IMG/VR virus record: IMGVR_UViG_2667527777_000006
Source: a virus
Taxonomy: Duplodnaviria; Heunggongvirae; Uroviricota; Caudoviricetes
DNA length: 42,485 nucleotides
Direction: 5' to 3' (one strand)
Position 1 is the stretch's first letter; each line of letters opens with the position of its first letter. Below are positions 35,187-35,655 of this stretch, one piece after another. The translations under genes were made by a program, and so were the position numbers. The notes under the pieces are model-generated. The model saw only the letters and a list, made by a program, of their open reading frames with translations. It searched no databases and had not been told where the DNA came from.

Positions 35187-35473
35187 TTCTTTTCCTTTTG
35201 CGTTGTTGGGGATAACCAGATTAACCGAATCCTTGTTGTTGGGAAATAACCAGGTCCACCTCGCCTGATGTGGATAAAAGCAGGCACATAACAGCTAAGT
35301 ATTTTTAACCAGAGAGAATCCTTAGCGTTGTGGTGAATGCGGCTCAGCGCACGCGGGTTAAGGTTGAGGCTGACAGTCGACCTTCTGTGGATACCCACCC
35401 GTCTGGTGTGCAACCTTCGCCAGGCACCGGGAGGCACCCGGCACCACAACTTTATGCTGTGTGTAGTCCTGGA

Positions 35474-35608
35474 GGTACCAGTTTGTACCCTTGCTTCCGG
35501 CTGGTACCGTCCTTTTTACAAAACAGAGAAGAGCATCACCGGACGACGGGCTCATAACCCAATCCATCCGGGCGGCTGCCACCGCAGGTGTTCTTCTCTG
35601 TTTTGTGG
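35474..35608. promoter_or_regulatory. GC-rich structured non-coding region with two inverted repeats upstream of the yfdP-like gene
   Basis: GGTACCAG...CTGGTACC (35474-35508) and a 15-bp perfect inverted repeat ACAAAACAGAGAAGA (35518-35532) / TCTTCTCTGTTTTGT (35592-35606). Confidence 0.45.
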
Positions 35609-35655
35609 AGAAACTAATCGGCCTTGCAGGGTCGATATGATGAGGAGCAGCAAAA

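Follow-up and report, generated by a model that had tools for sequence, protein, structure and literature searches.

STnc100 (RF02076) is a family of small RNAs (sRNAs) encoded by gammaproteobacterial prophages; in EDL933, 11 copies have RNA-seq reads and one of them is Northern-verified (PMC5331693). Its published structural relatives, PasD1 and PasD2 of enteropathogenic Escherichia coli (EPEC), are also prophage-encoded RNAs with an intrinsic terminator; they lie near Q and lpxR in the late region, are expressed in lysogens, depend on Hfq, are seen on Northern blots, and have partners in RIL-seq (sequencing of ligated, interacting RNAs) data (PMC8550237; 10.64898/2026.05.13.724894). Here we describe a predicted RNA at positions 35294-35517 (+ strand) of a Caudoviricetes sequence of 42,485 nt (IMG/VR record IMGVR_UViG_2667527777_000006), the whole of which is hereafter called the window. 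The ~125-nt core of this RNA (35327-35450, +) is, judged from its sequence and predicted fold, a divergent, unannotated member of the STnc100/PasD family, to PasD by an indirect tie via STnc100. The window is a Shigella/E. coli prophage of the SfIV kind: a 501-bp stretch around the element is 99.8% identical to Shigella phage SfIV, and its identity to SfV, to SfII and to several E. coli phages is 94-98%. Of 5426 complete E. coli genomes, 2860 match this 501-bp query and 1325 of these contain at least 80% of it; the element was also found in phages of Shigella, Salmonella and Cronobacter.

Leader RNAs provide a second set of comparisons. In phage lambda, the early-left promoter is followed by the RNA element nutL and then by the RNase III hairpin of the N leader, a long double-stranded stem right before the ribosome-binding site of the first gene. 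The window has its candidate promoter, RNA element and stem in the same order, but among its open reading frames (ORFs) tested for family matches there is no N-like protein, only a Q-like one (27929-28306), and there is no boxB, nor any boxA within 35290-35655. StxS, from the late leader of Stx phages, and SroA and SroG, from riboswitch leaders, are leader-derived sRNAs made by early termination. As is proposed for the window element, they are short RNAs freed when transcription terminates within a longer operon's leader, and they can also act in trans; they have no kinship to it in sequence or structure. HK022 putL and putR are, like the window element, structured RNAs in the early-operon leader of an N-less lambdoid phage, at the same position relative to the early-left promoter, pL. 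They are ~70 nt long, form two stem-loops and occur in both early operons (PMC9378689), whereas the window has one pseudoknotted copy of ~125 nt with a terminator of its own.

The relationship to STnc100 emerged from a permissive Rfam scan of the window, in which the sole meaningful match was to this family (35297-35519, +; E = 2.4e-6 and 38.4 bits, spanning the full model, positions 1-206). A preliminary description of the region, made from its letters alone, had proposed an Rfam/Infernal scan and a covariation analysis in homologous phages as checks; the first returns only a tRNA at gathering thresholds, 47 bits for STnc100, the match being visible in the E-value scan, and the second yielded a structure better than chance with covarying helices. 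The copies in phages ST64B (35.1 bits) and P1 (33.4 bits) match Rfam model positions 31-147 only. Viral contigs were scanned for the 21-mer CACCGGGARGCACCCGGCACC, which gave more than 120 loci and 92 distinct cores. The window core aligns with the 91 others with no rearrangement; 25 columns are invariant, and the invariant blocks comprise GGUGAAU, the P2 hairpin loop CU..GCG, UCACCGGGAGGCACCCGGCACC and, in most copies, GCGCGG. Our model of the 92 cores, R1, scores the window at 81.7 bits (the window sequence itself being part of the alignment) and ST64B at 77 bits. It finds just one copy in the 42.5 kb of the window and nothing in the pR operon. The more diverged core of mEp460 has a score of 25.5 bits. 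The window core thus shares with STnc100 its architecture, GGUGAAU, the P2 loop, UCACCGGGAGGCACCCGGCACC, helices P1, P2, P4 and P5, and the linker and terminator that follow. It differs in its sub-threshold score, its P2 stem, an additional 5′ hairpin (P0), the lack of a sigma-70-like promoter abutting helix P1, and its location, which is an early-left leader and not the interval from Q/stx to the lysis genes.

The overall RNA comprises P0, the core, a linker, and a terminator hairpin with its U-tract. P0 (35294-35326, +; GCUAAGUAUU...AAUCCUUAGC) is a 90% complementary inverted repeat with arms at 35294-35303 and 35317-35326; it is present in the minimum-free-energy (MFE) fold and abuts the core, joined by CGUU. 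The core is closed by helix P1 (GTTGTGGTG at 35327-35335 with CACCACAAC at 35442-35450) and contains P2 (35339-35343/35349-35354, with A35351 bulged), P4 (35401-35408/35418-35425) and P5 (35427-35431/35437-35441, with the loop AGGCA), all on the + strand. Across the 92 cores, RNAalifold and pair counting support the closing helix and the P2 and P4 hairpins. Pairs form in 93.5% of cells, compared with 81% in shuffles and 40-45% after sliding of the 3′ partners; the covariation score of 0.364 (0.133 in shuffles) was reached by none of 500 shuffles. Three pairs of P2 change from C-G to G-C between the typical, type-A copies and the type-B subtype described below, and the core of phage P1 replaces U-A with C-G in its closing helix. 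P5 is invariant in the 92-core set because of how that set was collected; in copies from other search patterns CCUGG/CCAGG replaces CCGGG/CCCGG and the AGGCA loop is retained. Of these patterns, a 16-base type-B pattern searched genome-wide gave mostly chance matches in GC-rich genomes, with real copies only in Citrobacter, E. albertii and E. coli, and a 14-base P1/P2 pattern also gave mostly chance matches, yet supplied the P5 covariants.

In addition, the segment just 3′ of P2 pairs with the P4 loop (35360-35366/35411-35417, +; AAGGUUG/CAACCUU in the window), forming a pseudoknot, newly found here, that lies outside the linear consensus structure. The sole test of this pairing compared each copy's own partner with the partners of other copies. 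Own partners form 6.55 Watson-Crick pairs on average and non-own partners 4.28; six or more pairs occur in 75% of own pairings and 13% of non-own ones. The pairing is maintained through different sequences, AAGGCUG/CAGCCUU in Cronobacter phage phiES15, UGGUUAU/AUAACCA in phage P1 and ~15 further types. In the window it competes with a local hairpin of the MFE fold; that hairpin is weaker in ST64B, no good equivalent was seen in phiES15, and both phages retain the pseudoknot. Helices P1, P2, P4 and P5 and the pseudoknot are therefore maintained by compensatory change. The core is followed by a linker (35451-35473, +) that is unpaired or weakly paired in the folds and is the most variable part across the family. 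By analogy with PasD (10.64898/2026.05.13.724894), it occupies the position of the variable, seed-like segment of other family members and may act as a seed.

The window copy belongs to a minority subtype, type B, in which P2 reads GCGGC/GC(A)CGC instead of the CCCCC/GG(N)GGG of typical copies. Type-A copies lie mostly in the late region, ahead of nanS-p or holin genes, and carry an upstream promoter signature (TANNNT at -14 in 56 of 106 upstream sequences, TTG at -38 in 49) from which the start would fall at helix P1. Type-B copies are without this signature and have P0 in its place, as a hairpin of different sequence in other copies; a promoter scan found no sigma-70-like site upstream of the window core. 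Type B occupies the interval from the repressor gene to the first early-left gene in at least nine phages: the window, ST64B, mEp460, 118970_sal3, phiES15 (where it precedes kil and gam) and the contigs labelled L008, L090, L123 and L043. Several of these are demonstrably heteroimmune, and their hosts are Escherichia/Shigella, Salmonella and Cronobacter. Type B also occurs upstream of tciA in phage P1 and before genes inserted between the portal and terminase genes. Over all contexts, some of which are not independent of one another, the element shares the orientation of the next long gene in 88 of 90 cases; where opposed genes meet, it heads the downstream unit 12 times and lies at the upstream unit's tail once. 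New here are the promoter-less type-B subtype and its fixed nutL-equivalent position in phages in which no N gene was found.

Downstream of the core, the repeats named in the preliminary description are where it placed them. The 8-bp repeat (GGTACCAG, 35474-35481; CTGGTACC, 35501-35508) forms the top of a longer stem with a U-tract behind it. Together they make up an intrinsic-terminator-like hairpin (35474-35517, +; GGUACCAG...CUGGUACC), extendable to ~13 bp, with a large loop containing TTGTACC (35484-35490) and followed by UUUUU at 35513-35517; the consensus terminator scan missed it because its loop exceeds 8 nt. An intrinsic terminator is expected 20-90 nt past the core of an STnc100/PasD RNA, and the window hairpin (35474-35508 plus UUUUU) lies in that range; a hairpin and U-tract with an unrelated stem occupy the same position in ST64B and phiES15, and follow most family members. 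Right past the U-tract begins a long hairpin (35518-35606, +) whose lower stem of ~25 bp includes the 15-bp perfect repeat (ACAAAACAGAGAAGA, 35518-35532, with 35592-35606). Pairing extends to 25 nt at 84% complementarity (35518-35542/35582-35606), and the 15-mers enclose 59 nt, not about 55 as first described. This hairpin ends in GUGGAG, 36 nt before the Shine-Dalgarno sequence of yfdP. With an energy of -63.8 kcal/mol, 35510-35660 folds far better than its shuffles (-42.2 +/- 4.2; z = -5.2), none of 200 of which did as well; the whole RNA, 35290-35520, gives z = -2.4, and 2 of 200 shuffles did as well. The long hairpin is almost invariant in E. coli and Shigella phages; in Salmonella versions the stem survives a double change of G-C to A-U as well as G-U/G-C shifts, and a long hairpin unrelated in sequence occupies this position in contig L090. 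The conserved apical part of the window hairpin includes the motif GACGGGCUCAUAACCCAAUCC (35545-35565, +), kept between genera. The apical motif (G)ACGGGNCUCAUAACCCAAUC recurs in the 5′ hairpin of a different type-B core, at ~10210-10230 (+) of the unrelated viral contig L021, and a GGG/CCC mini-hairpin looped by CUCAUAA may form a small module in its own right. The MFE fold also contains a small hairpin (35617-35636, +; AUCGGCCU-UGCA-GGGUCGAU) past the long one and ahead of the yfdP ribosome-binding site; ST64B has a different hairpin there.

The preliminary view of a GC-rich structured RNA is borne out by these data: the GC content of the core is 0.63 (phage SfIV overall is 50.3% GC; PMC3851460) and covariation supports the structure. 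Treating the region as a single feature did not hold up, as its main part, the STnc100-type core with its closing helix, was overlooked, along with the arms of P0. An attenuator or processing site, also proposed there, is plausible, given a U-tract hairpin past the core in three lineages with unrelated stems and a ~25-bp stem before the first gene. A further long-range repeat (35273-35289/35677-35693) was judged to be chance, its 5′ arm being kept in phiES15, where the downstream gene is kil and not yfdP. The region is thus largely accounted for as a divergent variant of a known prophage RNA family plus a leader hairpin, for which we infer the function as follows.

Building on the family relationship, the secondary structure and pseudoknot, the terminator-like architecture, the position and orientation of the element and the non-coding status of the region, we modestly favor a terminated RNA of STnc100 type in the leader, which would hold back the early-left operon and itself be set free as an sRNA. 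In this scheme, 35294-35517 would specify an RNA of ~190-225 nt, a leader-embedded type-B form, transcribed rightward within the pL transcript and hence mostly after repressor inactivation. The core would fold compactly through P1, P2, P4, P5 and the pseudoknot, and the hairpin and U-tract at 35474-35517 would halt a large share of polymerases, placing the RNA end at 35513-35518. Such termination would throttle and insulate the downstream operon from yfdP to xis-int, and would also free a stable structured RNA which, by analogy with its relatives, would probably associate with Hfq and pair with other RNAs via the linker. Read-through transcripts would bear the ~25-bp hairpin (35518-35606) directly ahead of the yfdP ribosome-binding site. 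This hairpin is most likely a processing stem of the RNase III type, for which its length makes it suitable, or a stem controlling yfdP translation or stability, as its position suggests.

Several considerations weigh against this proposal. The Rfam score is below the gathering threshold, and both this copy and its subtype are known from sequence alone. Several type-B copies have no terminator and run directly into a ribosome-binding site (tciA of phage P1, and contigs L284, L290 and L115), so that release as an sRNA cannot apply to the entire subtype. A pseudoknotted domain of 110-135 nt with invariant junction nucleotides is odd for a base-pairing Hfq sRNA and suggests an extra, unnamed partner. 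Moreover, the co-orientation and the 12-to-1 preference for operon heads fit a role in cis at least as well as one in trans, and the case for RNase III acting on the long hairpin draws on two things, its stem length and the analogy with the lambda N leader. In pathogens the STnc100/PasD family is both expressed and abundant, whatever its mode of action, and the covarying pseudoknotted core and promoter-less subtype offer concrete targets for mutational experiments.

A broader alternative is that the core is a cis-acting domain deciding polymerase entry into the operon, either as a put-like or Nus-dependent antiterminator or as a sensor of a ligand or protein. We think this unlikely, but were it true, type B would be a functional replacement of N/nutL in widespread N-less lambdoid phages (SfIV/SfV/SfII, ST64B, mEp460, phiES15), and the abundant "STnc100 sRNAs" seen in enterohaemorrhagic E. 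coli (EHEC) and in Salmonella would represent the terminated leaders of switches of this kind, placed ahead of lysis and moron genes. The first form, a processive antitermination or anti-Rho element analogous to HK022 put or lambda nut, is less likely again. In this reading the core, once transcribed, would contact the elongating polymerase or Nus factors and so enable polymerase to get past the terminators of the long, largely untranslated pL leader in N-less phages. The nutL/putL position of type B in at least nine phages, several of them heteroimmune, speaks for such a role, as do the failure to find an N-like protein among the window ORFs tested, the intrinsic terminators in leaders with up to ~770 untranslated nt, and the placement at operon heads with co-orientation; invariant nucleotides and a pseudoknot would also suit binding to a conserved host machine. 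In addition, the phages of the mEp collection, of which mEp460 is a member by name, were all isolated as Nus-dependent (PMC11893012), and no N gene is annotated beside the mEp460 repressor. Set against this, the core has no sequence similarity to HK022 putL or putR, whose regions were read directly, and R1 finds nothing in the HK022 locus; the window has only one copy, none being in the pR operon. For typical family members, discrete RNAs of ~160-210 nt accumulate, matching core plus terminator in annotated length (PMC5331693, PMC8550237); if these RNAs end at that terminator, a polymerase that has just made the core does terminate. ST64B and L123-type phages also have a terminator-like hairpin upstream of the core, which is odd for an element acting before terminators. 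The question bears on how N-less lambdoid phages carry early-left transcription, including that of xis and int, across a long leader that contains terminators.

The second form, a riboswitch-like or protein-responsive sensor, is improbable. It would set termination in the window, ST64B and phiES15, and translation initiation at tciA of phage P1 and in contigs L284 and L290, the RNAs seen as sRNAs being terminated leaders. Consistent with this, the same core is joined to different expression platforms, either a terminator or a ribosome-binding site directly; in phage P1, the outer 3 bp of helix P1 overlap a 9-bp hairpin covering the tciA Shine-Dalgarno sequence. The core's size, pseudoknot and invariant junction nucleotides are also aptamer-like, and nearly all copies face the next gene. 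However, terminator arms are no more complementary to their own cores than to others (5.18 vs 5.03 and 4.68 vs 4.41 pairs) and no conserved switch helix was found. Rfam scans gave no match to known riboswitch families, no ligand can be proposed, and the downstream genes (yfdP, kil, tciA, nanS-p, holins) are functionally unrelated, which is atypical of a metabolite sensor.

A function at the DNA level is highly improbable, be it as an operator for CI, as a binding site for another protein, or as a sequence marking recombination or a mosaic boundary. The preliminary description had likened the TTGTACC of the hairpin loop to an operator half-site of the cI-cro interval, whose palindromes it does resemble. 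Yet the palindrome spacing does not fit, and a palindrome-pattern search of this kind gave a single site with three mismatches, not above chance. Moreover, mEp460 holds the same hairpin with TTGTAC in its loop, although its repressor shares only the peptidase domain with the window cI, with an unrelated DNA-binding domain, and its promoter is surrounded by different operator-like repeats (ATTGCA...TGCAAT type). On these observations, TTGTACC is not a CI operator. Homology breakpoints at 35256, 35311, 35470 and ~35617-35631 are those of ordinary mosaicism, and there is no other sign of the recombination site that had been suggested. In five helices, compensatory changes point to RNA pairing, and not the DNA sequence, as what selection acts on, and the element is strand-specific with respect to its neighboring genes.

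Least credible of all is that the region encodes a protein, as a 226-aa ORF (35337-36017, SfIV_34) or one of 75, 114 or 74 aa: although the yfdP frame stays open back to an ATG at 35337, GenBank annotates this ORF and an antisense one in SfIV, and RefSeq places a "frameshifted hypothetical protein" here, ST64B reads the homologous nucleotides in a different frame, mEp460 has two stops in the yfdP frame, phiES15 has stops in all three frames, the invariant 21-mer would be SPGGTRHH in some spurious ORFs and TGRHPAP in others, and the K-12 YfdP start is the equivalent of 35655. The ORFs overlap on both strands, as the preliminary description observed in finding none convincing; none has a Pfam or NCBIfam match and no frame is kept among homologous phages. 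The region thus reads as non-coding, with its function at the RNA level. In the GenBank record of SfIV, ORF-35 (35105-35449, -) and ORF-34 (35337-36017, +) overlap the RNA, as does a RefSeq pseudogene (35330-35640). ORF-35, which the SfIV paper counts among phage-unique proteins, and ORF-34 are almost certainly spurious apart from the final 120 codons of the latter, which are the real yfdP. The annotation of the element as hypothetical proteins or a frameshifted pseudogene can therefore be corrected.

The surrounding locus has a lambdoid layout. A cro-like gene (33374-33598, -) is followed by cI (33665-34339, +) with its own terminator directly after. Just past this terminator, a promoter scan found a site at 34379-34406 (+; TTGACA-16-CATAAT, 11 of 12 matches), overlapped by ATGTACC operator-like repeats that run to 34412 and resemble the palindromes of the cI-cro interval; this site is likely to be pL, the source of the element-carrying transcript. 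The first ~40 nt past it (34416-34455, GAACAGGCAGGACGCCCACGAAGTAGCCGCC...) are common to ST64B (contig L002, 2668-2706), though the operator-like repeats of the promoters differ; read on the minus strand, this block forms a terminator-like hairpin. An exact rrn-type boxA core, GCTCTTTAACAA, lies just behind a hairpin at 34517-34528 (+), ~105 nt past candidate pL and ~800 nt upstream of the element, where 0.2 matches per window would be expected with up to one mismatch. In this phage it might draw NusB/NusE onto the early-left transcript. No such boxA occurs in the eight other repressor-proximal leaders or the seven further type-B loci that were scanned, so the exact copy is confined to this window's leader among the loci scanned, and the single boxA-like 12-mer is rejected as a general partner of the element, not being common to related phages.

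Between pL and the RNA lies an insert of two convergent genes (34574-35186, overlapping by 29 bp), which ST64B and mEp460 are without: a 68-aa phrog_1744 gene (34574-34780, +) and a 144-aa ECs1072-family/phrog_5286 gene (34752-35186, -). Given the strand and position of the latter, transcription from pL is necessarily antisense across it. A 37-nt block just 5′ of P0 (35256-35293, CCACCTCGCCTGATGTGGATAAAAGCAGGCACATAAC; contig L130, 1889-1926) is kept in phiES15, and in both phages a minus-strand ORF lies upstream of it; the block may be the promoter of that ORF or a portion of the RNA. The first gene past the leader, yfdP (phrog_204; 120 aa, ATG at 35655, to 36017, +), is annotated in RefSeq, has its Shine-Dalgarno sequence GAGGAG at 35642-35647 (+), and is followed by yfdQ, yfdR, further genes, xis and int. 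K-12 prophage CPS-53 contains yfdP and lacks the element, making K-12 data uninformative about it. A tRNA-Thr(CGU) directly past the integrase gene (39634-39709, -) is the attachment site and marks the end of the prophage; the sequence past ~39.7 kb is probably host chromosome.

IpeX of DLP12 was considered as an alias of the element and rejected, as the conserved 21-mer is not in the K-12 DLP12 region, even with four mismatches. The weak match in phage P1 is not within immI (c4), sitting instead upstream of tciA. In the pR-side region of ST64B, a C4 antisense RNA (79.7 bits) and isrK (64.3 bits) are adjacent on contig L002 (409-597, -), unannotated in GenBank and lying under the sb41 coding sequence. 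Two or three STnc100-type cores in the same orientation, 0.3-4 kb apart, were found in contigs L014, L021, L022, L041, L056, L065, L077 and L083, with a spacing of 484 nt in four contigs. Finally, many type-A cores upstream of holin genes (L010, L024, L039, L071, L074, L097, L109 and L111) are followed after ~90-130 nt by a second conserved block, ...CCTGGTAAATCGGTAGCTCGGACTATTAGG..., which may be another structured RNA.

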